This document shows positions 16,042-52,356 of a stretch of 64,000 bases of DNA, piece by piece. A model generated the notes under the pieces. That model searched no databases, was not told the DNA's origin, and worked only from the letters and a program-made list of their open reading frames with translations. The position numbers and the translations under genes were made by a program. The DNA comes from a virus (taxonomy: Duplodnaviria; Caudoviricetes): the IMG/VR virus record IMGVR_UViG_3300032007_000009; one strand, 5' to 3'. Each line of letters opens with the position of its first letter. The first letter of the stretch is position 1.

Positions 16042-16809
16042 ATGAAATATATAAAAAAATATGAAAATGGTACAGCATATAATGCTGATAGTTTAATATT
16101 ACCTAATATATCTTTAATATCATCAGATAATAGTTTACATATGAATCCTGATACTAATACATCTTCTCAATATGATTATGTTGAAATAGGAGGAATTAAA
16201 TGGGCTACAAAAAATTTAGGTGCAACAAGAATAGGAGATTATGGATTATTTTTCCAATGGGGTGATACACAAGGTTATACTTATCAACAATTACTTAATA
16301 ATGAACATAATTTATCGATAGAAAATCATACATTATATAATTCTGAATCTAATAATTCAGAAGATGCAATTATAAAATATAATGAGACAGATCAAAAAGA
16401 AGAATTAGAATTAATTGATGATCCTGTTCATGCAGCATTAGGTGGTAATTGGAGAACACCAACTGAAACTGAATATATTACTTTATTTGAACATACAAAA
16501 CAAATATGGGTATATAATTATAATAATACAATTGGTGGTCTTTTACTTATTGATAGTAGTGATGGTGGTAAACAATTATATTTTCCTGCATGTGGGTATT
16601 TTGAACCAATTAATGCATCTCAAAATAATTGGGAGAGTAGTAACGAATATGCTAAATATTTGACTAGTACCGTATCTGGATTTTGTAATGGTATTGAAGT
16701 TGATATTATGGAATTCTTTGAAGATAAAGATGACTATCCTATTAATTATACTAATTTTACTTATGCATTACCAGTTCGAGGTATAATAGATGATAATTTA
16801 AATAATTAA
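16042..16809 (+). CDS. Fib_succ_major/CLec-like domain protein with MKY[IL]K leader
   Basis: YVEIGGIKWATKNLGA, YGLFFQWG, GGNWRTPT, LYFPACG, LPVRG. Confidence 0.7.
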   Translation: MKYIKKYENGTAYNADSLILPNISLISSDNSLHMNPDTNTSSQYDYVEIGGIKWATKNLGATRIGDYGLFFQWGDTQGYTYQQLLNNEHNLSIENHTLYNSESNNSEDAIIKYNETDQKEELELIDDPVHAALGGNWRTPTETEYITLFEHTKQIWVYNYNNTIGGLLLIDSSDGGKQLYFPACGYFEPINASQNNWESSNEYAKYLTSTVSGFCNGIEVDIMEFFEDKDDYPINYTNFTYALPVRGIIDDNLNN

Positions 16810-16811
16810 AT

Positions 16812-17615
16812 ATGACATCTTGTATAGTTACATTTATAAAAAATGAACATGAATATCTTGACGAATGGATTCAATATCATTTGAATTTAGGTATAAATCA
16901 TATATTTATATTTGAAGATATTGATAGTTTAAGTCATAAAAAAATTATTGACAAATATTCTTCAGATAATGTTACATTAAATAATGTATCAATATTAAAT
17001 ATTAATAAATCTAATTATGGGCATAGTTGGGATAAACTTAGACAAGATATATATTTTAGATTTGGATTGTTCTGGGTTAAAACCAATTATACCTATAATT
17101 GGTGTTTTCCTATTGATAATGATGAATATATAACTTTATCTAATAATGATTATACATTAGTATCTATTTTAAATAAATATTCTGATTATGATGCTGTAGT
17201 ATTATATTGGCAAAACTATAATGCTAATGGACATATAACAAAACCTGATTATACAAATAATGGACTTATTGAGACTTATACTCAAAAATGTGAACGACCA
17301 CATAAAGATCCTAATTGGAAGAATACTAAAATAATGTATAATATGAAAACATATAAAAAATATTATTATATAGCTTCACATTCATTTTATAAATTAATTA
17401 ATTGGTGTAAATCAGATTTTTCAAAAGAATTAGGCAATATTACATATGATAATATTTATTTAAGACATTATATTACTAAATCATGGGAAGAATATGTTTG
17501 GAAATTAAAAGTTAGAGGGATGTTTCATGTAAACCATAGAAATTATGATGATTTTTTTATAATAAATAAAGATTTAATTTCAAGAAAAGATGAATTAATC
17601 AAAATGATAAATTAA
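16812..17615 (+). CDS. Glycosyltransferase (GT2/GT92-like)
   Basis: IKNEHEYLDEWIQYHLNLG, DxD (IDNDEY), HYITKSWEEY. Confidence 0.85.
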   Translation: MTSCIVTFIKNEHEYLDEWIQYHLNLGINHIFIFEDIDSLSHKKIIDKYSSDNVTLNNVSILNINKSNYGHSWDKLRQDIYFRFGLFWVKTNYTYNWCFPIDNDEYITLSNNDYTLVSILNKYSDYDAVVLYWQNYNANGHITKPDYTNNGLIETYTQKCERPHKDPNWKNTKIMYNMKTYKKYYYIASHSFYKLINWCKSDFSKELGNITYDNIYLRHYITKSWEEYVWKLKVRGMFHVNHRNYDDFFIINKDLISRKDELIKMIN

Positions 17616-17636
17616 TAAATAATAGTATATTATATT

Positions 17637-18131
17637 ATGAAATCAATTAATAATTTTTTAACAGAAGAAAAATTAGAAAATATTTATACCAATTTGGCAA
17701 AAGGTACAATTTTATATATTGTACTAGATAAAGATAAATGGACAGATAATAGTAATAAACATAAATGTTATCAAATAACAGTTAAAGATGTTACAAATAG
17801 AGGTAAAGAAACTTTATTTAGTGGAAATAAAGTAAATACTACTTCTGTTACACTTGAATCAAATCCATTTAAGATATCTAACTTTTTAATATTTGATAAA
17901 CAAAATGAAACAAAAAAGGAATTTTTTGTAAAACGTATACATGCAGAAGGATCAATTTGGTATTTTGCAGGAATATCTAAAGAAGCAGTTATCAGTGCTT
18001 TAGATTCTAAATATCGTAAACAATTAGAAGAAGTAGATGATAAGATATTAAAACTTCAAAAGGATATTGAAGAGTTAAATACAGAAAAACAACAAATTGA
18101 AGATAAATTAAAAATTGAACTCGAAGATTAA
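17637..18131 (+). CDS. Hypothetical protein with capsid-targeting-like N-terminus and C-terminal coiled coil
   Basis: MKSINNFLTE. Confidence 0.6.
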   Translation: MKSINNFLTEEKLENIYTNLAKGTILYIVLDKDKWTDNSNKHKCYQITVKDVTNRGKETLFSGNKVNTTSVTLESNPFKISNFLIFDKQNETKKEFFVKRIHAEGSIWYFAGISKEAVISALDSKYRKQLEEVDDKILKLQKDIEELNTEKQQIEDKLKIELED

Positions 18132-18133
18132 TA

Positions 18134-18601
18134 ATGAAAAGATATTCAGAGTTATTTGAAAATAAAGACGATATTAAACATTACGTAGATGGTATTTTAG
18201 TATCTGAGGATAATAGAATACTAATTTTACGTCGTGCTAATTATATGAAGTTATTTGGTGGTTGTTGGGGATTTGTTGGTGGCTCTATAGATAAAAAAGA
18301 TAAAGATAGTAAATCTGCTATTATAAGAGAAATTAAAGAAGAGACAGGTTTAGAACTAACATTTAACGAACAACAAAAAATGAAATCTATAGATAAACAA
18401 GGACATGAAAAAGAAGATGGTTCAATAGGTTCTGATACAGAATATTGGTTAATCCAATTAGAAACAACTCCAGATATTAAAATATCTCGTGAACATTCAA
18501 AATATGAATGGGTTGGACCTGAAGAAATAAAAGAACGTAATCGTAAATTTATGTCAGATGTTTTTCATTACATACAAAAATATTTTAACGGTGATTTGTA
18601 A
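18134..18601 (+). CDS. Nudix hydrolase with capsid-targeting-like N-terminus
   Basis: Nudix box GG...AIIREIKEETGL; SREHSKYEW; MKRYSELFE. Confidence 0.9.
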   Translation: MKRYSELFENKDDIKHYVDGILVSEDNRILILRRANYMKLFGGCWGFVGGSIDKKDKDSKSAIIREIKEETGLELTFNEQQKMKSIDKQGHEKEDGSIGSDTEYWLIQLETTPDIKISREHSKYEWVGPEEIKERNRKFMSDVFHYIQKYFNGDL

Positions 18602-19266
18602 TGCCAATTATACATAAACCTGAACAAACAACATTAGGACACGTTTTTGATCTTAAGTCATTAGATAAGAAGGTATATACAGATGAAGAAATTAAATCTT
18701 TCAGATTGGATGAATCAATAAATAATCATCCATTAGCAAGAAAACCAACCTCTATAAGATCTAAATTAGCGTATAAAGAAATATTAAGAAACTTAAAACC
18801 AACAAAGAAATATGTATTACCTGGACAGGTAGTATTATTTAATTATTCACAACCAAAATTTAAGGAAGAACTTGAATATTATGATAATTATCCATTTTGT
18901 ATAAGTTTTGGTATTATAAGAACTGAAGATGGTAATATTCGTGAATGCATGTTAAATCTCCATTATTATCCCCCATTTACAAGAGCACGAATATTACAAC
19001 AAGTATTTACACATTTTAGACCATATTTTGAAAAATATTTTAATGAAGCAGGTACAAAACCAAATACTGTTATGTCTTATTCAATGTTAAAACATTTACT
19101 TAAGGTTAATCAGAAAATTGCATTTGGAACAAAAATGTATATTCCTGTACTTAGAGGTATTACATATAATATTCCTTCAAGGTTATTCCCAACAGCCTTT
19201 TACACAGAAGGTAAATTTAGTAAAGCAACATTACAACAAATATATCATTTTTGGAGACAATTTTAA
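18601..19266 (+). CDS. DNA end protector (T4 gp2-like)
   Basis: PGQVVLFNY...LEYYDNYP...LNLHYYPPFTRARIL. Confidence 0.75.
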   Translation: MPIIHKPEQTTLGHVFDLKSLDKKVYTDEEIKSFRLDESINNHPLARKPTSIRSKLAYKEILRNLKPTKKYVLPGQVVLFNYSQPKFKEELEYYDNYPFCISFGIIRTEDGNIRECMLNLHYYPPFTRARILQQVFTHFRPYFEKYFNEAGTKPNTVMSYSMLKHLLKVNQKIAFGTKMYIPVLRGITYNIPSRLFPTAFYTEGKFSKATLQQIYHFWRQF

Positions 19267-19268
19267 TT

Positions 19269-20030
19269 ATGAAATACTTAAAACTTTTTTCAACACAAAC
19301 TCAATATCAATCATATATAAAAAATAATTGGATATCTCCACATATCTATAAAATACAAGAAAATAAAAATGTTGATTATGAAGATAAATATATACCACTT
19401 GAATACATAAGTAGTACTCAAACAGGTGGACAGTATATTGATTTAGGATGTCATTTAATGGAAAACACTGACGATATTAAAATTGATATTAAATTTAATA
19501 TTAAAGGTGTAGGTAAATCATCTTCAGGTGGCGATCCTAATTTGGCAACATTAATTTCATCACAACCAGAAGTTAGTCCATGGCCAGGATTTATATTGAG
19601 ACGTCAAGCGGTGGATAATTATAGAATTCATTTACAAACAAAATGGCAGTTTACAAATTCTGCAAAACGAGTTGGTGATGCTAAATATGATTCTAAATAT
19701 TTATCATATGTACAATCTGCTAATAATTGGATAAGTGTTGATTATCCAGGTATATATGAGTTTACAGAAATATTAGATAACATACCACAATCACAAGTCA
19801 ATGATTGTACATGTACATTATTCTGTGCATTAGATAGTTCAAATAATCCTTTTAGATATTGTTATGCTGATTTATATTATTTGAAATTTACAAAGGGAGA
19901 AACTGTTGTAAGAGATTTAGTTCCTGTTTTAAATAAACGTAATATTCCTGGTTTATATGACAAAGTAAATAAAAAATTCTATCCATCACAAGGAGATACA
20001 AATTTTGTAGCTGGTCCTATAAAATCATAA
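19269..20030 (+). CDS. Putative lectin-like (beta-sandwich) virion adhesin with MKY[IL]K leader
   Basis: ATG at 19269; EYISST..GQYIDLG...VRDLVPV...GLYDKVNKKFY...FVAGP pattern typical of phage fibre-tip domains. Confidence 0.55.
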   Translation: MKYLKLFSTQTQYQSYIKNNWISPHIYKIQENKNVDYEDKYIPLEYISSTQTGGQYIDLGCHLMENTDDIKIDIKFNIKGVGKSSSGGDPNLATLISSQPEVSPWPGFILRRQAVDNYRIHLQTKWQFTNSAKRVGDAKYDSKYLSYVQSANNWISVDYPGIYEFTEILDNIPQSQVNDCTCTLFCALDSSNNPFRYCYADLYYLKFTKGETVVRDLVPVLNKRNIPGLYDKVNKKFYPSQGDTNFVAGPIKS

Positions 20031-20073
20031 ATAAATTTTATTTTTATAAAATACTTATATAAATAATGAATAT

Positions 20074-20664
20074 ATGAAAGATTTAAGAACATTTATATAT
20101 GAATCATCTAATGAATTAATATCAATGATTAAAAGAATGATGGGTTCAGTTGATTATAATAAATTGCAATCGTGTTCTGAGCAAGATCAAGATAAATTTG
20201 ATAAACAAAAAGAAAATGAACTTTTAATTACAAAAGATTTTAATGAAGGTGATTTTACAATTATTGGAACTACTGAATATTATTCAAAAGTAAAAGATGG
20301 TGATTTTAATAAATTAAGTATAAAAGAAAAAAGTAAATTTAATACTCAAAATGGCGACTTAATTATTATGAAAAATGATAAACCAGTTTATTTTATTGAT
20401 GTTAAGATATCTGATAAATATTTAGGAACAATATCATTAGGATCATTAGTTAATTTCAATAAGGACGGATATTATCTTTTAATTTGTAAAACTGGTAAAT
20501 TCTTTAAAGTAATATCACATAAAGAAGTGGAAGATGCCGTTAAAAATAATAAACTTAATTTAAATGCTCCTGTTGATTCATATAAAGGATATGATGTAAA
20601 ATGGGAAGGTGAAGATATGACATCTGAATGGTTTATTAAAGGAAATGATCTTAGAAAAATATAA
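20074..20664 (+). CDS. Putative PD-(D/E)XK nuclease-fold protein with capsid-targeting-like N-terminus
   Basis: MKDLRTFIYE; GDLII...FIDVK. Confidence 0.5.
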   Translation: MKDLRTFIYESSNELISMIKRMMGSVDYNKLQSCSEQDQDKFDKQKENELLITKDFNEGDFTIIGTTEYYSKVKDGDFNKLSIKEKSKFNTQNGDLIIMKNDKPVYFIDVKISDKYLGTISLGSLVNFNKDGYYLLICKTGKFFKVISHKEVEDAVKNNKLNLNAPVDSYKGYDVKWEGEDMTSEWFIKGNDLRKI

Positions 20665-20672
20665 TTATAATT

Positions 20673-21728
20673 ATGAAAAGATTTAGTCAAATAAATGAAG
20701 TATGTGCTACATCTTCAAAAAATCCTGGAAATTTATTAGTCAATACAGGAGTAACTAATCATTATACACCTATTCAAAATATATTAACAAATATTAAAAA
20801 TCTTTATTGTGTACAATTAGGTATTGTTGCAGATCAAGGTGAAGATGGAGTTTCTATTAAGTTAACTAGTTCATTATTTACAAATGAGCGTAAGGTTAAT
20901 GAATTATTATATACATGTCTTTATAATGATGTCAATTTTGAACAGTCTTCATTAGCTGCATATATACAAGCACAAGGATTAACTAAAATAACTAATGTTA
21001 ATATTGGAGGATATATTATTGTTTATTTTTCACCTGATGATATATCTACTGCAGAAGATCCATATTCAATGTGTAAATCATGTTGTCCAACTCCTGAAGA
21101 AGCTTGTGAATCAATTTTAGATGAATTTGAAATTACATCTATGATTAAAGAAGATGATGGTGAGGAAGAAGTAAAGAATATAACTTTAGAAAAAATAATG
21201 GAACTTATTGATTCTAAAGATAAAGTTAAAGCTGCTAAACAATTAGAATTATTAGTATCTCAAGAAATTAGTTTACCACGTGAATTTTATTTTGCTGCTA
21301 TTAAATTTAAGACTGATGACGAAGCAATAGCATTACGTTGGAAATATACTAAGAAGCTTCCTGGGGGTAAATCAACAGAAAATACTCGTTCAATTCTTCA
21401 TATATTTGGTAAAGGAGATGAAGGAATATGGGTACAAGATTTTGCTGAAGATTCTATTGTTACATTACCTGATGAAGTTAAGAAACTTATTGAATCAGTA
21501 TTAGATTTATTAGAAGCTAAAGAAACTGATGACCCTTCAATCTTTAAACTTGATGGTGAACGTAGAGAACGTAAGGATGATGAAGATGATAAAGATAAGG
21601 ATGATGACAATAAAGACGATAAAAATAAAGACAATAATAAAGAAGAAAAGAAAGATAAGAAGACTGATGATAATGATGACGATGGTGAAGATGATTCTTC
21701 TCGTGGTGATGATACAGATCTTCTTTAA
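20673..21728 (+). CDS. Putative prohead core/internal protein with D/K-rich tail
   Basis: MKRFSQINE; internal IKE site; highly charged C-terminus. Confidence 0.5.
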   Translation: MKRFSQINEVCATSSKNPGNLLVNTGVTNHYTPIQNILTNIKNLYCVQLGIVADQGEDGVSIKLTSSLFTNERKVNELLYTCLYNDVNFEQSSLAAYIQAQGLTKITNVNIGGYIIVYFSPDDISTAEDPYSMCKSCCPTPEEACESILDEFEITSMIKEDDGEEEVKNITLEKIMELIDSKDKVKAAKQLELLVSQEISLPREFYFAAIKFKTDDEAIALRWKYTKKLPGGKSTENTRSILHIFGKGDEGIWVQDFAEDSIVTLPDEVKKLIESVLDLLEAKETDDPSIFKLDGERRERKDDEDDKDKDDDNKDDKNKDNNKEEKKDKKTDDNDDDGEDDSSRGDDTDLL

Positions 21729-21741
21729 TTAAATATAAATT

Positions 21742-22101
21742 ATGAAAGATATTCGTATATTCTTGGAAGGTAAGACTATTGATGAAGTAACAATAAAAGA
21801 TATCAAAATAAAAAAAGAAGTTGATGTTGTATATTATTGCTATGATAAAGAATCATTAGATAAAGTTTCAAAACAATATGAACATGTTGGTAAGTATTGG
21901 ATAGATAAAGGTTTCTTCCTTGCAACATTAAAGAATAAATCAACATGGGTTGTTAATATGGATAAAGAATTTCATATGCATACTTGGAGACCTAATGCTG
22001 ATTTTATTGAATATAATGATAATGAAGAAGAATATACATATAAAGAACTTCTTGAATTACTTGAAAAAGGAGAAACAATGCTAGTTGTGATTAATAAATA
22101 A
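21742..22101 (+). CDS. Hypothetical protein with capsid-targeting-like N-terminus
   Basis: MKDIRIFLE. Confidence 0.6.
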   Translation: MKDIRIFLEGKTIDEVTIKDIKIKKEVDVVYYCYDKESLDKVSKQYEHVGKYWIDKGFFLATLKNKSTWVVNMDKEFHMHTWRPNADFIEYNDNEEEYTYKELLELLEKGETMLVVINK

Positions 22102-22118
22102 TATATATAAATAAAATT

Positions 22119-22661
22119 ATGAAAAAATTAAATGAATACATATCAATTAACGAAGGTGTAAAATTACCTGATGATAAACTTAATATCATTGAAAAATTTT
22201 TAAATGATGAAAATAGATATGACTTTAATAAAACTATTGTTTGTGATGTATTAAATCAGTTTGATAATGTAGCAACAGAAATTATTGCAGATATTGCGGG
22301 ATATTTAGTTGAAGCATACATTTGGGATCAAATGCATAAACTTATTACTAATAAAGAATTTTGTGATGTATGGTTTGATGGTAATAATAAGAGTAGTGAA
22401 GAATTTAAATTAAGTCCTTTGGCAAGACGAAACAATAAAGATAATAATGGATCTGCAATATATTGGGATTTTACTATTAATGGAATAGATGAAAAATTTG
22501 AAATTAAAGCACGTTCAACAAAAGAAGGTAAGAAAAATGGTGGATATCGTTTTACTGTAAATCAATCATCAGATAAAAATTTGATTTATATTTTAGTTGA
22601 ATATTCAATATCTGGAGATGAAATTAATATAGGAAATATTAAAATAACAAGAAAATTATAA
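22119..22661 (+). CDS. Putative PD-(D/E)XK nuclease-fold protein with capsid-targeting-like N-terminus
   Basis: MKKLNEYISINE; GYLVE...WDFT...FEIKAR. Confidence 0.5.
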   Translation: MKKLNEYISINEGVKLPDDKLNIIEKFLNDENRYDFNKTIVCDVLNQFDNVATEIIADIAGYLVEAYIWDQMHKLITNKEFCDVWFDGNNKSSEEFKLSPLARRNNKDNNGSAIYWDFTINGIDEKFEIKARSTKEGKKNGGYRFTVNQSSDKNLIYILVEYSISGDEINIGNIKITRKL

Positions 22662-22679
22662 ATATATAAAACGACATAA

Positions 22680-22880
22680 ATGAAATCATTAGAAGAATTT
22701 GTTATTGAATCGGAAAAACAAAATGAAGATGTATTTGTTGTTTATTTTGGAGATGGTGTAATGGAAAATTTCTATTATACTGAAGATGAAGCAAAAGCTA
22801 AAGTCGAAGAATTAAATAAAGAAAATTCTGATGCAAAGGCTTCATATAAAAAAGAATCAAAATCAAAAATTGAAAAATAA
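22680..22880 (+). CDS. Small protein with capsid-targeting-like N-terminus
   Basis: MKSLEEFVIE. Confidence 0.6.
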   Translation: MKSLEEFVIESEKQNEDVFVVYFGDGVMENFYYTEDEAKAKVEELNKENSDAKASYKKESKSKIEK

Positions 22881-22904
22881 AATATTTAATATAATATATA
22901 GTTA

Positions 22905-22931
22905 AGTAGGATATCATTGAGATATCCTACT
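22905..22931. terminator. Intrinsic terminator closing the 14-23 kb late block
   Basis: AGTAGGATATC-ATTGA-GATATCCTACT; same stem core as 7283. Confidence 0.75.
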
Positions 22932-23015
22932 ATTTGTTTATATATTTGTTTATAACATATTGAATTATTTAAATAATTATTTCTATATTAAAACTGTTAA
23001 TTAATATTAATAATT

Positions 23016-23483
23016 ATGAAAGTATTTAGATTAAGACATAAAAAATATAAAGGAGATGTTGTTTTTGGTCTTCCTTCACCTTATAATGAAAGTGTAGGTG
23101 AAAAAAAGATTAATGAATTATTTAGTAAGATGAAACCATGGATGCATGCTGTACCTTATTATAAGAAAAGTAAATTTAGTTTTGTTTCATCTAATGCAAT
23201 ATTAACATTTTTAAATAATGGTAAGTTTACTGAAGAAGAATTGAATGATGTAAATAATAGTTTCTATGTTGAAATATATGAAGTAGAGATTTGGAGTGCA
23301 GGATTATCTAAATTTTTATGTACATATTTTGATGATGAAATAATTCCTGATACATATGATACTATTACTATAAAAGAATTAATTAATTGGACATATAAAA
23401 CTGTTTATCAGGATCCAGTTCCAAAAGCAGATATTAACTTGAGTAAAACATCATATTATTCAGATGTTAAATTGTATTATTAA
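23016..23483 (+). CDS. Hypothetical protein
   Basis: ORF preceded by CTATATT at 22983. Confidence 0.6.
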   Translation: MKVFRLRHKKYKGDVVFGLPSPYNESVGEKKINELFSKMKPWMHAVPYYKKSKFSFVSSNAILTFLNNGKFTEEELNDVNNSFYVEIYEVEIWSAGLSKFLCTYFDDEIIPDTYDTITIKELINWTYKTVYQDPVPKADINLSKTSYYSDVKLYY

Positions 23484-23531
23484 TTTAATGATTATTATTT
23501 AAATTATAATTATAAATTTAATTTTTAAACT

Positions 23532-24011
23532 ATGAAATTTGGAAAAGATTTTTTGTTTAAAGAGTTAGTTAACACATTTGCGTATACTACAGCAACTCAA
23601 AATAGAGATGTATATACAGATGTAAGTATTAATGGTAGACGTTATACAAAATACGGTACATTGCAAGCTGTAACCTTTGTAGGTAATTTGTATAAGACTG
23701 GAGTTAAGGGTGATGGTTATCTTAAGGAAGATGGCGCTCCAGTAAATAAAAATGAAAAGTATGTATTGTCAATTGGTATGTCTAAACAGCATCCTTGCGA
23801 TACAAAGGTAAATAAAGAGTTAGGATATGAAATGGCAATGATGAATGCACTTAATAATCCTATCATTTTAATTGAAATTAATGATAAGTTTACTTATCGT
23901 CGTTTCAGAAATATTGTGGAAGATTATTTAAACACAATAAAACTAGAATTTATTAAAACAAAGCAAGAAATAATTGCTGAGGGTGGAAATCCTAAAAAAT
24001 ATAATAGATAA
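23532..24011 (+). CDS. Hypothetical protein
   Basis: ORF with genome-typical codon usage. Confidence 0.6.
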   Translation: MKFGKDFLFKELVNTFAYTTATQNRDVYTDVSINGRRYTKYGTLQAVTFVGNLYKTGVKGDGYLKEDGAPVNKNEKYVLSIGMSKQHPCDTKVNKELGYEMAMMNALNNPIILIEINDKFTYRRFRNIVEDYLNTIKLEFIKTKQEIIAEGGNPKKYNR

Positions 24012-24018
24012 TAGTTAT

Positions 24019-24046
24019 AGACCTAATTTTATATTAGGTCTTTTTT
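24019..24046 (+). terminator. Intrinsic terminator
   Basis: AGACCTAAT-TTTAT-ATTAGGTCT followed by a T-run. Confidence 0.75.
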
Positions 24047-24104
24047 AATATTTTTACAGAGTAAAACTATATTACAAAATATAAAAATATATGATATATA
24101 ATTA

Positions 24105-24866: not shown

Positions 24867-24876
24867 TATTCAAACA

Positions 24877-25773: not shown

Positions 25774-25774
25774 A

Positions 25775-25802: not shown

Positions 25803-25803
25803 G

Positions 25804-26103: not shown

Positions 26104-26126
26104 GTATTTCGTAAAAATATATTTTA

Positions 26127-42519: not shown

Positions 42520-42521
42520 TT

Positions 42522-43948: not shown

Positions 43949-44004
43949 TCTTAAAGGACATGAAGAAGTAAAGAAAGAATTTGAAACAAAACAATTATCA
44001 TAGT

Positions 44005-44247: not shown

Positions 44248-44544
44248 CTATGGCAACAATTAAGAAACTTATATTATTATCACTTACAGCCTTGATGATG
44301 GTTGGGTGTGGTGATAATATGGCATTAGAAGGTTTGGATGTCATTAATGGAACAAAATATGTAGTAACATTAAAAAGTAAAAAACCTAAAGAGTTCACTT
44401 ATAATCTTATTAAAGTAGGTGGTATGGACTGGTATGATTATTCTTATAGTGATACCACGGATTTTAATATTGGAGATACCTTAGTGATAACTGTTAGAAG
44501 GGTTAGTAATCAAATAAAGGAGAAATAACTATGGTAACAATTAA
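44234..44544 (+). repeat. 30-bp direct repeat at gene junctions (44234-44263 and 44515-44544)
   Basis: TAAAGGAGAAATAACTATGG[C/T]AACAATTAA with 1 mismatch. Confidence 0.9.
44250..44528 (+). CDS. Lipoprotein
   Basis: MATIKKLILLSLTALMMVG-C lipobox. Confidence 0.7.
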   Translation: MATIKKLILLSLTALMMVGCGDNMALEGLDVINGTKYVVTLKSKKPKEFTYNLIKVGGMDWYDYSYSDTTDFNIGDTLVITVRRVSNQIKEK

Positions 44545-44950
44545 ATCACACAGTGACTTGCAACAGTCAAAGAAGTTGGCAGAGATACTGCCACTTGAAA
44601 GTGCGGATATGGTATATTTTGGCATTCATCAAGGTATGGATGGTAAATATTATCTGAGTGGAACTAACACTGAAGAAGATGTTGTTCCCATTTATAAAAA
44701 TCTCTGTACTAAAGTATTTACAAAAACAACTACGAACGATATTATTTGTATGTTACCTTGTTGGTCGCTTGTAGCACTGCTTGGTGTCATAAGAGAAAAA
44801 ATAGGTTATACCCTTTATGGTGTTAACAATGTATATATGTCTTGTAACCTTGGTGACAAACCTTGGAAACTTGAAACAGAAGTATATGACAACGAAGTTG
44901 ATGCTTGTGTAGCTATGATTGAGAAATTAAATGAAGAAAACTTGTTGTGA
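44531..44950 (+). CDS. Hypothetical phage protein
   Basis: QSKKLAEILPLESADM...PCWSL. Confidence 0.6.
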   Translation: MVTIKSHSDLQQSKKLAEILPLESADMVYFGIHQGMDGKYYLSGTNTEEDVVPIYKNLCTKVFTKTTTNDIICMLPCWSLVALLGVIREKIGYTLYGVNNVYMSCNLGDKPWKLETEVYDNEVDACVAMIEKLNEENLL

Positions 44951-45177
44951 TTATGAAATATAGAATTGTAGGTAAATATAAAAATAACAAACTTATTTAT
45001 AAAGTTCAAGAAAACCCTTTATTTGGATTTCCTTTATTTTGGACAACTGTTACTTATTGGGGACCTGAAGCACCTCATCCCGATTTAGTTATACCTGGAT
45101 GCTGTACTGTTAATTGTGTTTTTAGTAATAGTGAAGATGCAGAAAAATGTCTTAATGGATTAATGAATAAATTATGA
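44947..45177 (+). CDS. Hypothetical protein
   Basis: ORF track; ATG 44953 possible. Confidence 0.5.
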   Translation: MIMKYRIVGKYKNNKLIYKVQENPLFGFPLFWTTVTYWGPEAPHPDLVIPGCCTVNCVFSNSEDAEKCLNGLMNKL

Positions 45178-46190
45178 AAGAACTATCAATTAAAGAAAAG
45201 GCAAAAGCCTATGACAATGTGCGTGATAAAATTGCAATAAGATTTGGTTCTAATGTTGCGAAAGAAATCTTTTCTGAGTATGAAGATAGTGAAGATGAGA
45301 GGATAAGGAAAAGTATAATACATCTTGTGAAAAAATCTCACGAACAAGGTGGGTATGCTTTACATAAAGATGAATCAGAAAAGATGCTTGATTGGCTTGA
45401 AAAGCAATGTGAGCAGAAACCTGTTGAACTATATAATGGTGATGACTATGGTATTGATGGTCTATGGCACGCGCAGCGAATACTTGAAAAGACACTTGGT
45501 AAGGTTGATGGCTACCAAAGTGATGATGGTATATTGGAGCATAAGTGTGCTATTAGTGCCGTTAATGAATTATCTAAGCAGAAACCCGTAGTACCAAAGT
45601 TTATAGTTGGCGATACTGTTAGAGCAAAAACAATGAATGATTTTGTATTTACCATTAAGGATATTACAGATAAGCAGTATATAGATACTAATGGTGGTAA
45701 ATTTGACATAGAAGGGCAAGACTATTTAGAACTTATTGAGCAGAAGTCTTCTTGGAGTGAAGAGGATAAAGAAATTATAAACAATATTGGAGAATACCTC
45801 AATTGCTATGGGAACTATATTGCGGATAAGAATGAAGAAAAAGCAGCTAAAATTTATAAGTCTGCTGACTGGCTTAAATCATTTAAAGGTAGAGTTCAAT
45901 CAAAGCAAGAGTTGAGTAAAGAGGATGAAGATGCTATTGCACAAGCTATACTAGCTCTTGAATCTATGTATGACCCAGATTACCCTGAAAGACATTATGC
46001 TGGATATACTCTTACATTCGACAAGGCTGCCGAAAGACTCAAATCCCTCAGGCATCAAAATAGGTGGAAGCCGAGTGAAGAACAGATTAAAGCAGTTGAA
46101 GATGCAATAGAATTTTTAGGTTGCACGAAGAAAGTTAGAGAAGATTTAAAGTCGTTACATGGACAATTAAAGAAACTAATGGAGGAATAG
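45174..46190 (+). CDS. Modular hypothetical protein with SEDERIR/WSEED/WKPSEEQ repeats
   Basis: Repeated [WL]S[EK]ED...WLKS units. Confidence 0.6.
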   Translation: MKELSIKEKAKAYDNVRDKIAIRFGSNVAKEIFSEYEDSEDERIRKSIIHLVKKSHEQGGYALHKDESEKMLDWLEKQCEQKPVELYNGDDYGIDGLWHAQRILEKTLGKVDGYQSDDGILEHKCAISAVNELSKQKPVVPKFIVGDTVRAKTMNDFVFTIKDITDKQYIDTNGGKFDIEGQDYLELIEQKSSWSEEDKEIINNIGEYLNCYGNYIADKNEEKAAKIYKSADWLKSFKGRVQSKQELSKEDEDAIAQAILALESMYDPDYPERHYAGYTLTFDKAAERLKSLRHQNRWKPSEEQIKAVEDAIEFLGCTKKVREDLKSLHGQLKKLMEE

Positions 46191-46311
46191 TTATGATGTG
46201 CAGAATGTTTGACGATACAAAGAAAAAATGTCAAGAAGCTTAATGTGAAAATTGCAAAGATAAATCTTGGACGAATTAAACAAGTAATAGATAAATTTAA
46301 AGAATAATATT

Positions 46312-47145
46312 ATGTTAACATTAGATGAAAAAATAGAATTAGCATATTGGATTATTGATCATAACAATAATGTTGCATTGACTGGATCATTATATGTATA
46401 TCTTAAATGTAAAGAATTAAATATTCCTTATCCTTTAGATAGGGAACCACAAGACATAGATATATTAGTTAATTATGATAAAGTTAAAGATGATGAAGAA
46501 TTTCCTGTATGTTTTTGTTTACCTCCTTTTATAGAAGAAGTTGAAATGAATAAACTAGATTTTGATTATCCAATTATAGGAAGGTTTACATATAGGGGAA
46601 CTAAAATAGAATTTCTTTATTCAGATAATTTTAGAAGTAAGTTTACTGAAACTAAGGAATTTGTTTTAAATAGAAATCGTGGTTATAGAGATATAAAATA
46701 TTGGGATTTTGGACTTATGTTTGATCTTATTGGTGCAAAACAATATTTTATGAAAATTGATTCAAATCCTGAATATTTAAATAAGACCCGTAATGATATT
46801 GATAAACTATTCAATATGATTAATGAATCTAATTATGACTGGGAATCTGAATATATAGAAATACTTAAATATTATATTATAAATAATAAATCACTAAAAA
46901 CATATAAAGATTATGGGCGTATTTGTATAGAAGGATGGATTTGGGATAATATAGTTAAGGGAGATTCTGAATTAATAAAATGGTTTTCTTTAGTATCATC
47001 GATAGATGTTGATTTTATTAAAAACAATAAGGATAAGTTTACACAATTTAATGTAAACTATTTACATTGTCTTAATTTTTTAGATGATCATAATACCTCA
47101 ATTATTAAAGATATTGTAAAAAACAGAAAAACCGAGTTATTATGA
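46312..47145 (+). CDS. Putative nucleotidyltransferase (pol-beta superfamily)
   Basis: ALTGSL...DIDIL motif. Confidence 0.6.
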   Translation: MLTLDEKIELAYWIIDHNNNVALTGSLYVYLKCKELNIPYPLDREPQDIDILVNYDKVKDDEEFPVCFCLPPFIEEVEMNKLDFDYPIIGRFTYRGTKIEFLYSDNFRSKFTETKEFVLNRNRGYRDIKYWDFGLMFDLIGAKQYFMKIDSNPEYLNKTRNDIDKLFNMINESNYDWESEYIEILKYYIINNKSLKTYKDYGRICIEGWIWDNIVKGDSELIKWFSLVSSIDVDFIKNNKDKFTQFNVNYLHCLNFLDDHNTSIIKDIVKNRKTELL

Positions 47146-47417
47146 AACATCCTATTCAAGTAACATTTTTTGATATAACAACATCTTCAATGAGGTCATT
47201 AGATACATTTGATAACATTGTAGGTACAGGAAAAAATTGTAAATATAATTTTATTCCAATTCCTCATAAAGGCGATATTGTTAATTTCGCAAAAGATGGT
47301 GAATTTGATAAACCATCACAAAACTATAAAGTTATTGAAATAAATTATTCATATAAACATTTATTTGATCCTAATTATATTTTTACATATGTTAAAGTAT
47401 TTGTAAAGAGATTATGA
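47142..47417 (+). CDS. Hypothetical protein
   Basis: ORF track. Confidence 0.55.
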   Translation: MKHPIQVTFFDITTSSMRSLDTFDNIVGTGKNCKYNFIPIPHKGDIVNFAKDGEFDKPSQNYKVIEINYSYKHLFDPNYIFTYVKVFVKRL

Positions 47418-48076
47418 AATATCCAAGAACATATCATTTACCATATTCACCAGGAGCAACTAAGGATGATAAGAAACTTCAGGATGATTGGTTTAAAAAC
47501 TATATAGGGGAAGAGATTGTTATAACAGCTAAACTTGATGGTGAAAATATTCATATGAATCAAAAAGGATGTTATGCAAGATCTAATGGTAATGTAACTA
47601 CTTCTCCATGGTCACGAAATATATGGGACCCTCAAGAAGGTCTTTATTGGAAAATTAAACAGTTTATTGGAGAAGATGAAACTATTTATGGGGAAAATCT
47701 TTATGGTGAACATTCAATTCATTATAATAAGTTAACTGATTATTTTCATTTATTTGCAGTAAATGATGGAGTTAATTGGTATTCTTGGGATGATGTCAAA
47801 ATGATGGCAGATATTATGAATATTCCTACAGTACCAGAATTATGGAGAGGAAGAATTTATAATGAAAATGAATTACATAAATTAGTTGAAAAATATGTGC
47901 ATGAATCTGAATGGTATGGAGATACACGTGAAGGTGTAGTCATAAGAAGAACAGATTCATTTAAAATAGAAGATTTCTCTAAATATGTTTGTAAATGGGT
48001 TCGAAAGGATCATGTACAAACAGATGAACATTGGACAAAGAATTGGAAAAAGGCAGAATTAATAAATAATATATAA
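47414..48076 (+). CDS. ATP-dependent RNA ligase family protein
   Basis: KYPRTYHLP, adenylation motif KLDGEN, YGE, EGVVIR, KWVR. Confidence 0.85.
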   Translation: MKYPRTYHLPYSPGATKDDKKLQDDWFKNYIGEEIVITAKLDGENIHMNQKGCYARSNGNVTTSPWSRNIWDPQEGLYWKIKQFIGEDETIYGENLYGEHSIHYNKLTDYFHLFAVNDGVNWYSWDDVKMMADIMNIPTVPELWRGRIYNENELHKLVEKYVHESEWYGDTREGVVIRRTDSFKIEDFSKYVCKWVRKDHVQTDEHWTKNWKKAELINNI

Positions 48077-48086
48077 AATTAAATAT

Positions 48087-48407
48087 ATGAGAGTTACATT
48101 TGAAAATTATAAAGATATTATACCTAAAAATAATCATGGTTTGATTGAAAGTTTATTAGTAGATCTCTTTGAATTGAATACTGAGCTTGAGACTATTCAA
48201 GAACCATATAGAAAGTTATATATTGATTATATAACAGAACATACAGAATATTCTCCTGAACGAACAGATCCATGTCCAGATTATTATGGAATGTATAAAT
48301 TAGTATTTGAAAAAAATCCTTATGAAAGTATAGGTACTGAAATGACTATTGAAGAATTAGATAATGCATTATGTGTATTGATTAATTTTGTTGAATTTAA
48401 GTTGTAA
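48087..48407 (+). CDS. Hypothetical protein
   Basis: ORF track. Confidence 0.55.
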   Translation: MRVTFENYKDIIPKNNHGLIESLLVDLFELNTELETIQEPYRKLYIDYITEHTEYSPERTDPCPDYYGMYKLVFEKNPYESIGTEMTIEELDNALCVLINFVEFKL

Positions 48408-48445
48408 TAAATCTATTTTTATATAAACAAATTTAGTGTATAAAA

Positions 48446-48658
48446 ATGAGAAATATAACATATACTGAAGCATTAAATATTGCAAGAAAAAAAGGTTTAG
48501 AATATGAAATTGCAAGAGCAATTAATGAACAAGGATTAAGTCCATGGGAAGCATTATATGAATGGGATTTAGTATCATATGAAGCTTATGATGTAAATGA
48601 TTATTCATCAGGTGCTGCTCAATATAATGAAGCTGATTTTGTTAATGTTTATAATTAA
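48446..48658 (+). CDS. Hypothetical protein
   Basis: ORF track. Confidence 0.6.
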   Translation: MRNITYTEALNIARKKGLEYEIARAINEQGLSPWEALYEWDLVSYEAYDVNDYSSGAAQYNEADFVNVYN

Positions 48659-48667
48659 TTATGAATT

Positions 48668-49258
48668 ATGAAAATAAATACTACTTGGTCACAACAAGAT
48701 TGGAATAATGCACTTAAAAAGGTTTGGAAATTATCCAGAGATTTTGAAGAGATATTAAATTTTGGTTTAGAAAATAATTTTATAACTTCTTCAGATATTA
48801 TTCATGCATCAGATATGTATAAAGATCCAAATAAAGAATATGATGATGAAGAATTAAAAGAAATTCTTGATAATAGTAATATTTATGATATTATGAAGAT
48901 TCTTCAAGAAAAATATTCTTTAAATGAAATTCTTGATGAATTATCTTCTGATGAAATATTAGATAATATAGATGCACGTGATAGATTAGATTCATTGGAG
49001 AATACTTGGGAATTGGAACAACATGATGAAGAAACTAAAGAAATTATATATAAAGAATATATTGATGAATGGATAGATCAATGTGAAATTACTGAAAGAA
49101 CTTCAATAAATAATTTATCAAATATCAATGGAGATGAATTACATAAATTTATATGTGATGTTATTGGTTGTGGATATTATGACCAAAATGAATTCGATAA
49201 ATGTTTAAAGAAATTTAAAGATAAATTAAATAAAAACTCTTATGGTGTTAAATATTAA
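48668..49258 (+). CDS. Acidic hypothetical protein
   Basis: ORF track; D/E-rich. Confidence 0.6.
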   Translation: MKINTTWSQQDWNNALKKVWKLSRDFEEILNFGLENNFITSSDIIHASDMYKDPNKEYDDEELKEILDNSNIYDIMKILQEKYSLNEILDELSSDEILDNIDARDRLDSLENTWELEQHDEETKEIIYKEYIDEWIDQCEITERTSINNLSNINGDELHKFICDVIGCGYYDQNEFDKCLKKFKDKLNKNSYGVKY

Positions 49259-49556
49259 AAAATATATCATAATTTTATTTTTTGTATTTATATTAACATT
49301 GTATTCATGTAATATTGATAATAAAAATAATACAATAAATATTTCAAAAGATTCTATATTAACTGGAAAATATAAAACAGAATATATCATACATTATAAT
49401 TCAAATTGGAATGTAAAGTGTGAAATTTATTCAGATAAAGAAGTTTATACATGTTCATTTCAAGGAACAAATTTTTTATTAGAAAAAGATAATTCTGAAG
49501 AAATATTATCTACAACAGCACCAATTCAAATCATTAAATCCGAAATAATAAAATGA
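49242..49556 (+). CDS. Putative lipoprotein
   Basis: Hydrophobic N-terminus ending LYS-C. Confidence 0.55.
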   Translation: MVLNIKKYIIILFFVFILTLYSCNIDNKNNTINISKDSILTGKYKTEYIIHYNSNWNVKCEIYSDKEVYTCSFQGTNFLLEKDNSEEILSTTAPIQIIKSEIIK

Positions 49557-49981
49557 AAGAAGAAAAAATTACAAAAAGAATTAAAGAACTTCAAAGTGAT
49601 ACAAAGTATACTTTTAAGTTAACTAATGAGATTATTAATTTGGTTTATAGAACTGCAGTAGAAGATTTATCAAAAGATATTAAAGAATCTAATAAAGTAA
49701 AAGATGAAGATGTTATAATTACATCATCAAAAGATCTTAATAAAAAATTTGGTTCAAAGGAAGTAACATATACAAAAGAACAATTAAAAGCTGAAATTCA
49801 AAATAATATACAAAAAACAAAACGTGATATATATTTAGAATTATTGAAAAAAATTGAATCTGAAACTGATTTAATGAATATTTATATCTTTATAAAAGAA
49901 AAATGTAAAGAGTATGGAGAACCAGGAATTAGGAATGAATACAATAATCAACGACGTTTAAGAGAAAATCCATGGATGTGA
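49553..49981 (+). CDS. Hypothetical protein
   Basis: ORF track. Confidence 0.55.
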   Translation: MKEEKITKRIKELQSDTKYTFKLTNEIINLVYRTAVEDLSKDIKESNKVKDEDVIITSSKDLNKKFGSKEVTYTKEQLKAEIQNNIQKTKRDIYLELLKKIESETDLMNIYIFIKEKCKEYGEPGIRNEYNNQRRLRENPWM

Positions 49982-50047
49982 TTTGATTCCGTTTGAATAT
50001 ACATACATATTGCGATAAATACGCATCAACCGAATAAAAAAGATTTA

Positions 50048-50308
50048 ATGAATTTTATGGGAAATATATTTCCGGAGAAAAAGAAAATAAGGAAGGAACG
50101 AACTAAAGAACAAAATTTATTATTTATACGACCTTATTGTTGGTATGATGATGGGACAAAATGGAAAGAATGCAATATGCCATGGGCAGATAAATGTAAT
50201 GGTAATATTCATTGGTGTTCTCATTTGAAATATAAATGGCTTGCATCATTACCAGAAAATAAACGTAATGAATATGTTAAACGTACTACATTAAAATATT
50301 TAAAGTAA
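50048..50308 (+). CDS. Cys-rich hypothetical protein
   Basis: ORF track. Confidence 0.55.
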   Translation: MNFMGNIFPEKKKIRKERTKEQNLLFIRPYCWYDDGTKWKECNMPWADKCNGNIHWCSHLKYKWLASLPENKRNEYVKRTTLKYLK

Positions 50309-50559
50309 TGAAAACAAGACTATTAAAACAACTTCGTAAAGAATCTTGGAACAAATATGAAGTAAGAAAAAGTGATGCAATAAATTGTCAAGATAAACCT
50401 TGGCATATATATACAAGTCATAATACATGTTTAGCATATCATGAATATAAAACACGAGAAGAAGCAATAGAAGCAGTAAAATTACTTTGGCATGATGTAG
50501 CAGAAAAATATTTATGGGATCATCGAGACCAAAGAAAACGAAATAAATATCCTTGGTAA
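50308..50559 (+). CDS. Hypothetical protein
   Basis: ORF track. Confidence 0.55.
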   Translation: MKTRLLKQLRKESWNKYEVRKSDAINCQDKPWHIYTSHNTCLAYHEYKTREEAIEAVKLLWHDVAEKYLWDHRDQRKRNKYPW

Positions 50560-50933
50560 TTATGAAAGTTTGGTTGAATGATTTAAAAGAAGGTGATATA
50601 TTTTATTTTATTATAAGACATAATATATATAAATGTGAGCATCTCGGAGATGCTCATAATATAAATTATAAAATGCCACGTATAAAATATAAAATACTTG
50701 AAAATAATAATTTAGATTATTTAGGAGAACGTGAAACATTTGTAAATCAGTATGTATATGATGATTATACATCTGCTGTTGAAGGAATTATAGAAATTAT
50801 AAAAGAAGATATTTCATATGCTAATAATTCTATAGATAAATTTAGAAATGAAATTAATTATTATGAATTACAATTAAAAAATCTAAAAGAATTATTAGAT
50901 AAATATAATAAAATATATAAAAATACAAATTAA
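50553..50933 (+). CDS. Hypothetical protein
   Basis: ORF track; ATG 50562 likely. Confidence 0.55.
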   Translation: MVIMKVWLNDLKEGDIFYFIIRHNIYKCEHLGDAHNINYKMPRIKYKILENNNLDYLGERETFVNQYVYDDYTSAVEGIIEIIKEDISYANNSIDKFRNEINYYELQLKNLKELLDKYNKIYKNTN

Positions 50934-51020
50934 ATTCAATGGTTAATAAAGAAACTATGACTGCAGATATTTCAAAAATGTTTGAAGATTATGATAAAAA
51001 TACAATAACTACAGATCAGG

Positions 51021-51146
51021 ATGCAATATATAAGCAATAATGATGAATGGGTAGATTATCCTTATATTGGAATTGGTGAAAAACCTTATTCTAAAAATAA
51101 AAAGAAATTAACTGAAGAACAATTAGAACGTATTCTAGGAGGTTAA
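51021..51146 (+). CDS. Microprotein (41 aa) ending in LTEEQLERILGG
   Basis: Open frame between neighbouring small ORFs. Confidence 0.5.
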   Translation: MQYISNNDEWVDYPYIGIGEKPYSKNKKKLTEEQLERILGG

Positions 51147-51149
51147 TAT

Positions 51150-51311
51150 ATGAATTTAAAAGATTATGATATATTTGTAGATTTTGGTAACGGTGATAAA
51201 TTCTATTTAAAAGATTTTATCATTAATGAAGAAAATAAAAAAATAATATTTAAAGGATGTAAAGGTCAAATGACATGGGTTAAGATTGATGCTTTATATC
51301 CAGTAAAATAA
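51150..51311 (+). CDS. Microprotein (53 aa)
   Basis: MNLKDYDIFVDFGNGDKF...LYPVK. Confidence 0.55.
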   Translation: MNLKDYDIFVDFGNGDKFYLKDFIINEENKKIIFKGCKGQMTWVKIDALYPVK

Positions 51312-51330
51312 TTATATTAATTTAGACAAA

Positions 51331-51358
51331 ATGAAGGACATACTAGTATGTCCTTCAT
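51331..51358. terminator. Perfect 28-bp palindrome between convergent genes
   Basis: ATGAAGGACATACT/AGTATGTCCTTCAT. Confidence 0.75.
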
Positions 51359-51393
51359 GAATATGAAATGTAATGTAATAACTAAATAAATAA

Positions 51394-52356
51394 TTAATAA
51401 GTAAGCATAGCAATAACATAGTAGTTATTGCCCTTAGTGTAGTTGTGGATATCGCCATTATCAGTATCAACAACATATGCGTGCCATGTACTACTTTCTG
51501 TCGAGCTCCAATGTCGGTTATTAGCTAACGAATTAACACAATCAGTTGAATATATTGCAGAAATTTGTGTTAACTTAGTATTAATATCGTCACGTAAAGC
51601 AACTATCATACTCATTTCACCACCCGCACCAAGATACCAATCACCTGCATTTGTTCCTACAGTATGATAGCGAGCACAACAACAAGCAGCAGGAGTATAA
51701 CCTACATTTGAATTATTTGTTATTGATGTATCTGTCATCCATGTTGACTGTGATGTTGCAGTAGCAAGAATCTTATCTGTTTTGTTTTTACCATCTATAT
51801 CTGTTACTATATATTGATTTACTGTACCTAATGCAGATATATTCCATTCATTATTTGCATCGAATACAGAAGGAATTAAACTAGATGTTTGTGTTTGCTA
51901 TGGTGTAGTTAAATAACCAGAACCATATATATCCCATTGATATACTTTTCCTATGTTATCAATTGTAGACATATCAGTTCCATTATTACCCCAACCCATA
52001 CCTTGTGCTGTTAATGATCCCGTTTCTGGTGTTGTATAATTCATATATTTAAGTGACATAAAACGAGCAGGTTCATTCTCGCCAAAGAATCCAGTTCCTG
52101 CGACACAAAGTCCAATTGGAGTATAACCCAAGCTTGGATCTAATATAGTTGAGTCAACCTTCTTGTTTCCTGCAGCATTAGCATAAAGTATATCTAATAT
52201 ATTATATGATGGTGGTGCAATATATGTATTATAGTGTACTTCATTTTGCTGCTTACAAAATGATACAACATCTTTACCCTCTGTTTCCATAAAAATAGAA
52301 CTAACTAAATATGCTTCATATAAAGAATGTTTAGAAAAGCGTTTAAGATATTTCAT
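51394..52356 (-). pseudogene. CLec-fold receptor-binding-like gene (DGR-target-like) interrupted by one in-frame TAG at 51898-51900; pseudogene or readthrough
   Basis: Track ORFs 52356..51898 and 51738..51394 are in frame and joined by 53 open codons; C-terminus GDWYL...E...WSSTE...AY...K...YVIAM. Confidence 0.75.

Follow-up and report, generated by a model that had tools for sequence, protein, structure and literature searches.

A shared N-terminal mini-domain on unrelated binding-type proteins of giant gut and rumen phages: a candidate plug for exchangeable adhesins

Three genes of a single rumen phage, coding for proteins with different C-terminal parts, open with what looks like the same stretch of some 40 residues, which raises the question of whether this leader is a genuine module and what it might do for the proteins that carry it. 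The genes lie in a window of 64 kb (the whole stretch of DNA that was analysed) of a 236-kb contig that is 83% complete and has a G+C content of ~24%. A sequence-only reading of the window had noticed the leader at the head of the ORFs at 16042 (+), 19269 (+) and 52356 (-), and had proposed that it docks interchangeable receptor- or glycan-binding heads onto one virion site. The three N-termini read as quoted there, and a regular-expression scan of all ATG-started frames of the window found the leader in these three only. Across the whole contig, three further leader genes, all on the minus strand, start at 52670, 88992 and 220790, for a total of six (genome numbering is used for these three and for a tRNA gene, window numbering for the three genes in Table 1), and the leader consensus is MKYLKKFENHxxYExYIxxxxxxxPNVSxCxxxNEVHYNP. 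An independent profile, for which 148 metagenomic leaders with <50% identity to every leader of this phage were used, matches exactly six of the 414 contig ORFs (E 3.8e-14 to 1.6e-5), always from residue 1, while the next match (E 0.008) is internal to a protein. The genes at 52356, 19269 and 16042 are matched with E-values of 3.8e-14, 7e-11 and 8.2e-10 (the last over residues 1-36), which bears out the claim of a common leader of ~40 residues on three different genes. The search of the genome with a leader HMM that the earlier reading had suggested is thus significant for six ORFs, and the C-terminal domains fused to the leader could be listed from database matches.

In a base of 1.84 billion representative proteins, the leader profile matches 1,792 representative clusters at E<=1e-3 (46 of them at <=1e-10), and the match begins within the first five residues in 139 of the 150 best database matches. 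The fused domains are mostly BspA-type LRRs, the remainder being Lcl_C-like lectins, Ig-like domains and BACON: among 79 longer matches, LRR_5 was found in 49, Lcl_C in 3, Big_2 in 2 and BACON in 1-2. Together with the LamG-type domain described below, this agrees with the proposal that one leader is carried by unrelated binding-type domains. None of the Pfam, PHROGs and NCBIfam models searched matches the leader region, so the family deserves a domain model of its own, and literature searches returned no description of it. The leader is, in our view, a genuine, undescribed module that realises an already known principle.

The carriers are very large phage contigs in all contexts examined. Complete phages of 353-412 kb have 3-7 leader copies per genome, carrier contigs of 46-68 kb are 14-20% fragments of huge genomes, and IMG/VR contigs hold 31 exact-pattern leader stretches, whereas 185,579 species genomes hold only 11, all in gut or rumen MAGs. 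Genes neighbouring leader genes in the carriers include sheath, gp19, PolB, PhoH and XkdV_N; in one relative (G004) the gene neighbourhoods of leader clusters carry no structural annotation. A search of 50,697 GenBank phage records gave no match for a consensus-like leader, for the window DNA or for the product of the second gene, and full-length family members gave payload-only matches, from residue 27 onward, Lak megaphages included. The gp23 model PF07068 has no match in the 83%-complete contig and is present in three relatives; PF07880 (T4 gp9/10) also has no match in the contig, control genomes being equally silent. The family thus appears confined to very large gut/rumen phages, T4-related where this can be checked, whose hosts are probably Bacteroidales/Prevotella.

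Table 1. Leader genes of the window and their features (window numbering; AF2, AlphaFold2)
Feature	Position	Strand	Basis or remark
Leader gene 1, P0001, 255 aa	16042..16809	+	leader plus probable Lcl_C/FISUMP-type lectin-like domain
Leader of gene 1, aa 1-37, short form without 4 helix residues	16042..16152	+	independent-profile alignment
Leader gene 2, P0002, 253 aa	19269..20030	+	AF2 pLDDT 92.9
Leader of gene 2, aa 1-40	19269..19388	+	profile; AF2 model
LamG/pentraxin/concanavalin-type beta-sandwich payload of gene 2, aa 41-253	19389..20027	+	structure alignment
Leader gene 3, P0017, 320 aa with TAG read through	51397..52356	-	P0003 covers the first 152 aa, up to the TAG
Leader of gene 3, aa 1-45, 4-residue insert	52222..52356	-	profile
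In-frame TAG, codon 153 of gene 3	51898..51900	-	Trp here in relative P0016
Lcl_C-like (C-type-lectin-like) domain of gene 3, aa 203-315, downstream of TAG	51412..51750	-	Pfam PF07603

The clearest view of a payload came from gene 2. The ORF lister had started this gene at a TTG at 19251; judged by the N-termini of the family, translation begins instead at the ATG at 19269, 3 nt past the stop of a gp2-like DNA end protector gene. Structure alignment of the predicted payload (VIA-align) gave a Z-score of 12.6 with the LamG domain of PAPP-A (164 aa aligned, rmsd 3.5), 10.8 with pentraxin and 10.6 with laminin G, and many LamG, pentraxin and neurexin LNS domains match residues 41-253 with Z-scores from 12.6 down to 9. 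The payload is therefore best modelled as a LamG/pentraxin-type lectin sandwich, a likeness of fold only. The beta-sandwich that had been suspected from the sequence is confirmed in this form, and the fibre-tip label that had been attached to it falls. More than 160 homologs of this payload were found; the leader is present on 98 of 117, and ~13 have a different N-terminal module of ~30 aa, which is absent from this contig. Within this LamG subfamily, the payload core is more conserved than the leader.

The other two payloads, which had been taken for a Fib_succ/CLec-like and a CLec/DGR-like domain, respectively, are harder to name. For gene 1, the Lcl_C/FISUMP likeness is weak: Lcl_C matches the payload at E 0.084, FISUMP (TIGR02145) gives no match at E<=0.01, and in the nearest ESM Atlas clusters only 14-31% of members carry DUF8237 or Lcl_C. 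A comparison of the gene 1 payload profile with the Lcl_C region of gene 3 was not significant, and neither protein has a sequence match in the PDB. Gene 3 was rejected as a 152-aa protein since the frame runs 167 codons beyond a single in-frame TAG; the read-through product is 79% identical to an uninterrupted relative of 319 aa (P0016), and a tRNA(CUA) is encoded in the contig (genome 82255-82327). A tentative Lcl_C-like label fits gene 3 only if this TAG is read through (PF07603, E 6.1e-6, 26.9 bits, under the 34.9-bit cut-off). The DGR part of the label found no support in the 83%-complete contig, where the final 200-220 nt of gene 3 and of gene 1 each occur only once, with no copy that could serve as a template repeat. 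Separately, a precomputed PF14262 label on another protein, P0008, could not be recovered even with a threshold of E 0.5.

An idea of how leaders and payloads have been recombined came from two LamG paralogs, whose DNA is >=93% identical over nt 8-157 (leader and first strand) and 87% identical to nt 187, roughly 30-70% identical in between, and again ~97% identical over nt 644-703. In other phages, the same LamG-like head also follows an N-terminal module of another kind. These alignments support modularity and the swapping of heads, and the earlier suggestion of gene-swapped heads has stood up well.

The reading we favour, with belief and doubt about evenly weighted, is that the leader is a common plug that attaches interchangeable adhesins to the virion, their heads being exchanged by recombination; attachment to the virion, the nature of the site and the ligands of the heads are what we infer here. 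Leader proteins would be expressed late in the cytoplasm, without an export signal, and the leader would fasten otherwise soluble binding modules (LamG-type lectin, Lcl_C-type lectins, BspA-type LRR and others) onto a repeated site of the assembling virion. The particle would thereby acquire a mixed set of accessory adhesins, the binding parts of which could be exchanged by recombination behind the leader. Late-type expression is partially supported. An exact T4-type TATAAATA lies 8-10 nt upstream of two of the six leader-gene starts, the T4-type late motif is enriched genome-wide at -30 to -8, and in two relatives ATATTTATA is found upstream of both gp23-type capsid genes and of five leader genes; in the relatives, the motif shared by capsid and leader genes is also found upstream of a homing endonuclease. 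As to the payload classes, they are of virion type: in this phage, the gene that immediately follows the one for the baseplate wedge encodes a leaderless LRR_5 protein, and the PHROGs in which Big_2 was matched bear the names structural or major tail protein.

A quite different possibility is that leader proteins are not virion components at all, being instead soluble lectin/LRR factors, released at lysis or intracellular, which might for example mask receptors on debris, bind polysaccharide or mucus or bring about superinfection exclusion, the leader binding another shared partner, perhaps in the host envelope or among the non-structural proteins of the phage. This would fit the dispersal of the leader genes of this phage among replication and nucleotide-metabolism genes (gp2/NUDIX, helicase, DNA polymerase and lysozyme in relatives), outside any structural block. 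It would also fit the divergence of the leaders within one genome, where pairwise identity among the six is only 25-39% and each is nearer to orthologs in other phages than to its sisters (that of gene 3 being nearest the family consensus), a divergence that is unexpected if all fitted one identical site. However, a strictly N-terminal, payload-independent and phage-only module has the usual signature of an assembly anchor, and the late-type promoter motifs on some copies are common to capsid genes in relatives. The proteins also have no export signal. Within residues 1-45, hydrophobic runs reach no more than 2-3 residues, where a Sec or lipoprotein core needs >=7; no hydrophobic core follows a basic N-terminus in the leaders, and no TM-like window is found anywhere in the leader proteins, in agreement with the earlier observation that the leader is not a signal peptide. 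On balance, a non-virion role seems improbable.

AlphaFold2 models the leader as a beta-alpha-beta-beta mini-domain, that is a strand, a helix and a beta-hairpin. This layout was obtained for the leader of gene 3 modelled alone (pLDDT 82), and the same secondary-structure elements are present in the full-length model of the gene 2 protein (strand 4-7, helix 10-19, strands 26-29 and 34-36), with pLDDT of 75-82 across the leader. The leader is thus predicted to be an autonomous N-terminal mini-domain of ~40 residues that would fold alone. Comparison of the leader-only model with PDB representatives gave no significant match (best Z 3.3, with the N-domain of VapB46; Z 3.2 with the collagen XVIII trimerisation domain), and a search of BFVD was empty at E<=0.001. 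In the ESM Atlas, the structure nearest to the model belongs to a viral cluster without annotation (TM 0.72), and a feature search with the leader as query returned no usable match. A trimer prediction with three leader copies (alignment A5) scored 0.01 and gave no answer. A mini-domain that is predicted to fold by itself, and that in every case precedes a beta-rich binding domain on the same chain, might be an intramolecular helper without any docking function, a cap for folding, solubility or oligomerisation. Yet the payload folds are unrelated to each other (LRR solenoid, LamG sandwich, lectin-like alpha/beta) and common without the leader, the same phage encodes leaderless LRR proteins, LamG homologs exist with another N-module, and a general folding aid would not be expected to stay within one giant-phage lineage, all of which makes a mere cap a distinctly poor prospect.

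It is still less probable, and very much so, that the leader represents another type of capsid-targeting signal, one that loads proteins into the head for injection. Like the T4 capsid-targeting sequence, it is a common N-terminal tag on unrelated proteins, and over its first seven residues (M-K-x-[IL]-K-x-[FY]) it looks like the beginning of the T4-type tag. The T4 tag, however, is a 10-residue peptide that ends in [LI]xE and is cut off by the head protease, whereas the leader is a folded domain of 40 residues with no Glu at position 10, and its payloads are extracellular-type binding domains. Triplets of the [IL]xE type occur in the leaders at residue 5, 12 or 29 or not at all, and the family consensus has none; with such inconsistent positions there is no conserved cleavage motif. 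A T4-type capsid-targeting sequence was accordingly rejected, and the leader is separate from the capsid tag, as had been claimed. Finally, a chance product of AT-rich coding (K, Y, I, N and F codons), conceivable in a genome so poor in G+C, is refuted by independent-profile E-values down to 4e-14 with a clear gap to noise and by the matching clusters worldwide, many of them from phages with 36-38% G+C.

If the leader is indeed a plug for adhesins, several systems show what it could resemble. The head fibres of PhicrAss001 sit in hexon pockets of the capsid, to which they attach via residues 1-38 (gp21) or 1-58 (gp29) (Bayfield et al., 2023, PMC10172136). This phage infects gut Bacteroidales, and several different fibres use one type of site, the hexon pocket (PMC10172136). 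The likeness lies in an N-terminal attachment segment of ~40-60 residues followed by a small, outward binding domain, attachment being supposed in our case. No sequence or fold similarity was detected between the two; each PhicrAss001 segment belongs to a single protein, in contrast to the leader, which is found on at least six unrelated payloads per genome. The PhicrAss001 fibres are dimers or trimers.

Exchangeable anchors are also found among receptor-binding proteins, as in BppL on BppU of TP901-1/Tuc2009, the branched tailspikes of G7C and CBA120, and the short conserved N-terminal peptide on second depolymerases of KP32/KP34-type Klebsiella phages. These share with the leader a constant N-terminal adaptor, a variable C-terminal binding head and swaps by recombination. 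They are, however, trimeric baseplate fibres or spikes with known partners (e.g. T4 gp10-like domains), in contrast to the typically monomeric head types (LRR, LamG, lectin-like), dispersed genes and different, uncatalogued mini-domain family seen here. T4 Hoc, a non-essential adhesin present in many copies on the particle, has Ig-like domains proposed to bind mucus glycans. It would be comparable as an adhesin with Ig-like binding domains on a T4-type particle, should the leader proteins be displayed. Hoc, the product of one gene, is attached to the capsid by a C-terminal domain, whereas the leader is an N-terminal module of a multigene family.

In a bolder version of the plug reading, which we think unlikely, giant T4-type particles would offer the mini-domain, as their universal plug, a lattice site repeated hundreds of times, for instance at the hexon centres of an enlarged gp23-type capsid protein or along the sheath. 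Virions would then each be coated with a combination of 3-15 different lectin/LRR-type adhesins. Gene swapping could adjust the make-up of this coat, as could, in this phage, amber suppression of one adhesin, and such a display would be mechanistically unrelated to Hoc.

Should the plug function prove true, the leader would mark the accessory adhesin repertoire of an uncultured lineage of giant gut/rumen phages, in which >1,700 leader protein clusters are annotated at present only as hypothetical or LRR proteins. Determinants of host range and of mucus or fibre binding would then be readable straight from metagenomes, and the leader would offer a small, naturally occurring tag for display on T4-type particles.

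The window covers bases 138281-202280 of a linear IMG/VR contig of 235,986 bp. Six genes of the contig begin with the same N-terminal module of about 40 residues (the leader). A pattern scan finds three such starts in the window and none besides, with N-termini matching those quoted in the sequence-only reading, and the rest of the contig adds three. A profile built independently from 148 metagenomic leaders, each less than 50% identical to any leader of the studied phage, recovers exactly these six ORFs (E 3.8e-14 to 1.6e-5), all from residue 1, the next-best match (E 0.008) being internal to its protein. The similarity is therefore real rather than compositional.

Leader genes and features of their surroundings
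Feature	Position	Strand	Remarks
Leader gene 1 (P0001)	window 16042-16809	+	255 aa
GT2/GT92-like glycosyltransferase gene	window 16812-17615	+	
Leader gene 2 (P0002)	window 19269-20030	+	253 aa
Leader gene 3 (P0017)	window 51397-52356	-	320 aa, read through TAG
In-frame TAG of gene 3	window 51898-51900	-	
Hypervariable end of gene 3	window 51397-51520	-	last ~35 codons
Mini-ORF ATGAAATATTAA	window 52357-52385	-	M-K-Y-stop
Paralog of leader gene 2	genome 52670-51894	-	
BspA-type LRR_5 protein with leader	genome 88992-87685	-	435 aa; LRR_5 E 2e-102
Leader protein of unclassified fold	genome 220790-218880	-	636 aa
tRNA(CUA)	genome 82255-82327		
LRR-type protein without leader	window 1080-3554	-	824 aa; phrog_35892/18805
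Family-B DNA polymerase and collagen-like fibre genes	window 3728-10405		
gp4-like head-closure gene, NUDIX gene and gp2-like DNA end protector	window 14014-19266		
Baseplate block	window 56953-63879	-	
BspA-type LRR_5 protein, leaderless, own different N-terminus	window 59832-61820	-	662 aa; TATAAATA at -22
Baseplate wedge subunit	window 61838-63523	-	phrog_219
Weak gp25-like ORF in baseplate block	window 63535-63879	-	

A search of 1.84 billion representative proteins with a 44-position leader profile matched 1,792 of them at E<=1e-3, of which 46 reach E<=1e-10; the consensus reads M(G)KYLKKFENHxxYExYIxxxxxxxPNVSxCxxxNEVHYNP. The match starts within the first five residues in 139 of the 150 best hits, and most of the other 11 look like mis-called upstream starts. 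None of the Pfam, PHROG and NCBIfam models searched covers the leader. The family members looked up are all metagenomic and lie among phage genes (a 1,177-aa sheath, gp19, PolB, PhoH, XkdV_N); in GenBank phages the payload types are present and the leader was not found. Searching with an exact degenerate DNA version of PNVSxC...VHYNP located 31 stretches in IMG/VR (contigs of 11-435 kb) and 11 among 185,579 species genomes, the latter exclusively in gut or rumen MAGs, mostly of Prevotellaceae or Bacteroidales. In complete phages (353-412 kb) there are 3-7 leader ORFs per genome, and carriers of 46-68 kb are pieces amounting to 14-20% of such large genomes. A gp23-type capsid protein (643-683 aa) is encoded in three of five records searched, namely two of the three complete relatives and one 45%-complete record; it was not found in the studied contig (estimated 83% complete, G+C ~24%).

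In the AlphaFold2 model of P0002, the product of leader gene 2 (122 homologs, pLDDT 92.9), the leader (pLDDT 75-82) forms a strand (4-7), a helix (10-19) and two further strands (26-29 and 34-36), and that of gene 3, modelled alone from 140 family members (pLDDT 82), has the identical strand-helix-hairpin order. A structure search of the leader against PDB, BFVD and annotated Atlas clusters returned no significant relative. As the sequence-only reading had it, the leaders lack a signal peptide and a terminal IxE site: scanning them revealed no signal-peptide core, TM segment or conserved [IL]xE site.

Residues 41-253 of P0002 are predicted to form a LamG/pentraxin/concanavalin-type sandwich (Z 12.6 with PAPP-A LamG, 10.8 with pentraxin, 10.6 with laminin G), with more than 160 homologs. 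Past its TAG, gene 3 stays in frame and encodes an Lcl_C-like domain (E 6e-6, short of the Pfam cut-off), and the payload of P0001, the product of gene 1, shows weak Lcl_C/FISUMP likeness. The proposal of three ligand-binding domains thus seems reasonable as a fold class, binding itself being putative. In the 79 hits that are 180 aa or longer, payloads match LRR_5 (49), LRR_8 (17), Lcl_C (3), Big_2 (2) and BACON (1-2). The glycosyltransferase gene begins 3 nt past the stop of leader gene 1, so that this lectin-like gene and the glycosyltransferase look co-transcribed.

The contig's two LamG paralogs are a DNA mosaic. Identity is at least 93% across the leader and first payload strand (nt 8-157; 87% to nt 187) and again ~97% at nt 644-703; between these conserved ends it is roughly 30-70%, and upstream of the ATG the two are unrelated. 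Among 117 LamG payload homologs, the leader heads 98, and about 13 have a different module of ~30 residues (..i.iG....mYiG..; P0176, P0183, P0232, P0256, P0271 and others, from other phages), which was not found in the studied contig and may be a different anchor. Mosaic paralogs and an alternative N-terminus on the same payload show that leader and head are separable units.

Gene 3 has a single in-frame TAG at a position occupied by Trp in the intact relative P0016; beyond it the frame stays open for 167 codons, with ~90% identity to P0016 through residue 278. Of the 13 contig genes ending in TAG, no other has a frame that continues, and a tRNA(CUA) is encoded. This points either to amber gating, which would make gene 3 the second such gene, or to a nonsense mutation of very recent origin. 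Its C-terminal end is hypervariable, as in lectin-type variable regions (~40% identity to P0016 versus ~90% just upstream); no template repeat was found in the contig. The three-codon mini-ORF, 13-24 nt before the start, duplicates the first three codons of gene 3.

On sequence evidence, namely several gene-content signs (the head-closure, NUDIX and DNA end protector genes, the DNA polymerase and fibre genes, and the baseplate block) and the placement of the T4 late-promoter octamer TATAAATA, the phage is T4-related. The octamer is concentrated 8-30 nt ahead of start codons, and Shine-Dalgarno sequences are absent at start codons throughout the contig, which together imply that late mRNAs have very short leaders, as would fit a Bacteroidota host. 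The leaderless 662-aa LRR_5 gene, which has a late promoter and sits immediately after the baseplate wedge gene, likely encodes a baseplate-attached receptor-binding protein, a context in which this payload class of the leader family appears virion-type. Another big LRR-type protein of the window also lacks the leader.

Does the leader dock its payloads on the virion, at one common site as first proposed? We put the chances of docking at about even. Docking is favoured by a module that sits strictly at the N-terminus whatever the payload, occurs in multiple copies and is restricted to phages, by the absence of an export signal, and by the precedent of the crAss001 head fibres, whose solved structures dock via residues 1-38 and 1-58 (PMC10172136). 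Late-type promoter motifs lend partial support: exact TATAAATA precedes two of the six leader genes, and in two relatives the candidate group promoter ATATTTATA, with a core TATTTATA that equals the T4 late octamer in reverse complement, is found ahead of both genes for gp23-type capsid proteins, of five leader genes and of a homing endonuclease (23 occurrences in 73.6 kb of loci L041-L044, L056 and L057, typically 13-63 nt ahead of starts and, at several leader genes, right after a hairpin terminator). Against docking count identities of only 25-39% among the six leaders, non-structural gene neighbours and the partial nature of the promoter evidence. The main alternative is a non-virion role in which the leader binds some other common partner. 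Pairing a constant N-terminal adaptor with exchangeable heads is an established design among phages. The novelty lies in this mini-domain, to which no model in the searched domain libraries corresponds, in its placement on lectin and LRR modules of typically monomeric kinds, and in its having spread through giant gut phages as a multigene family.
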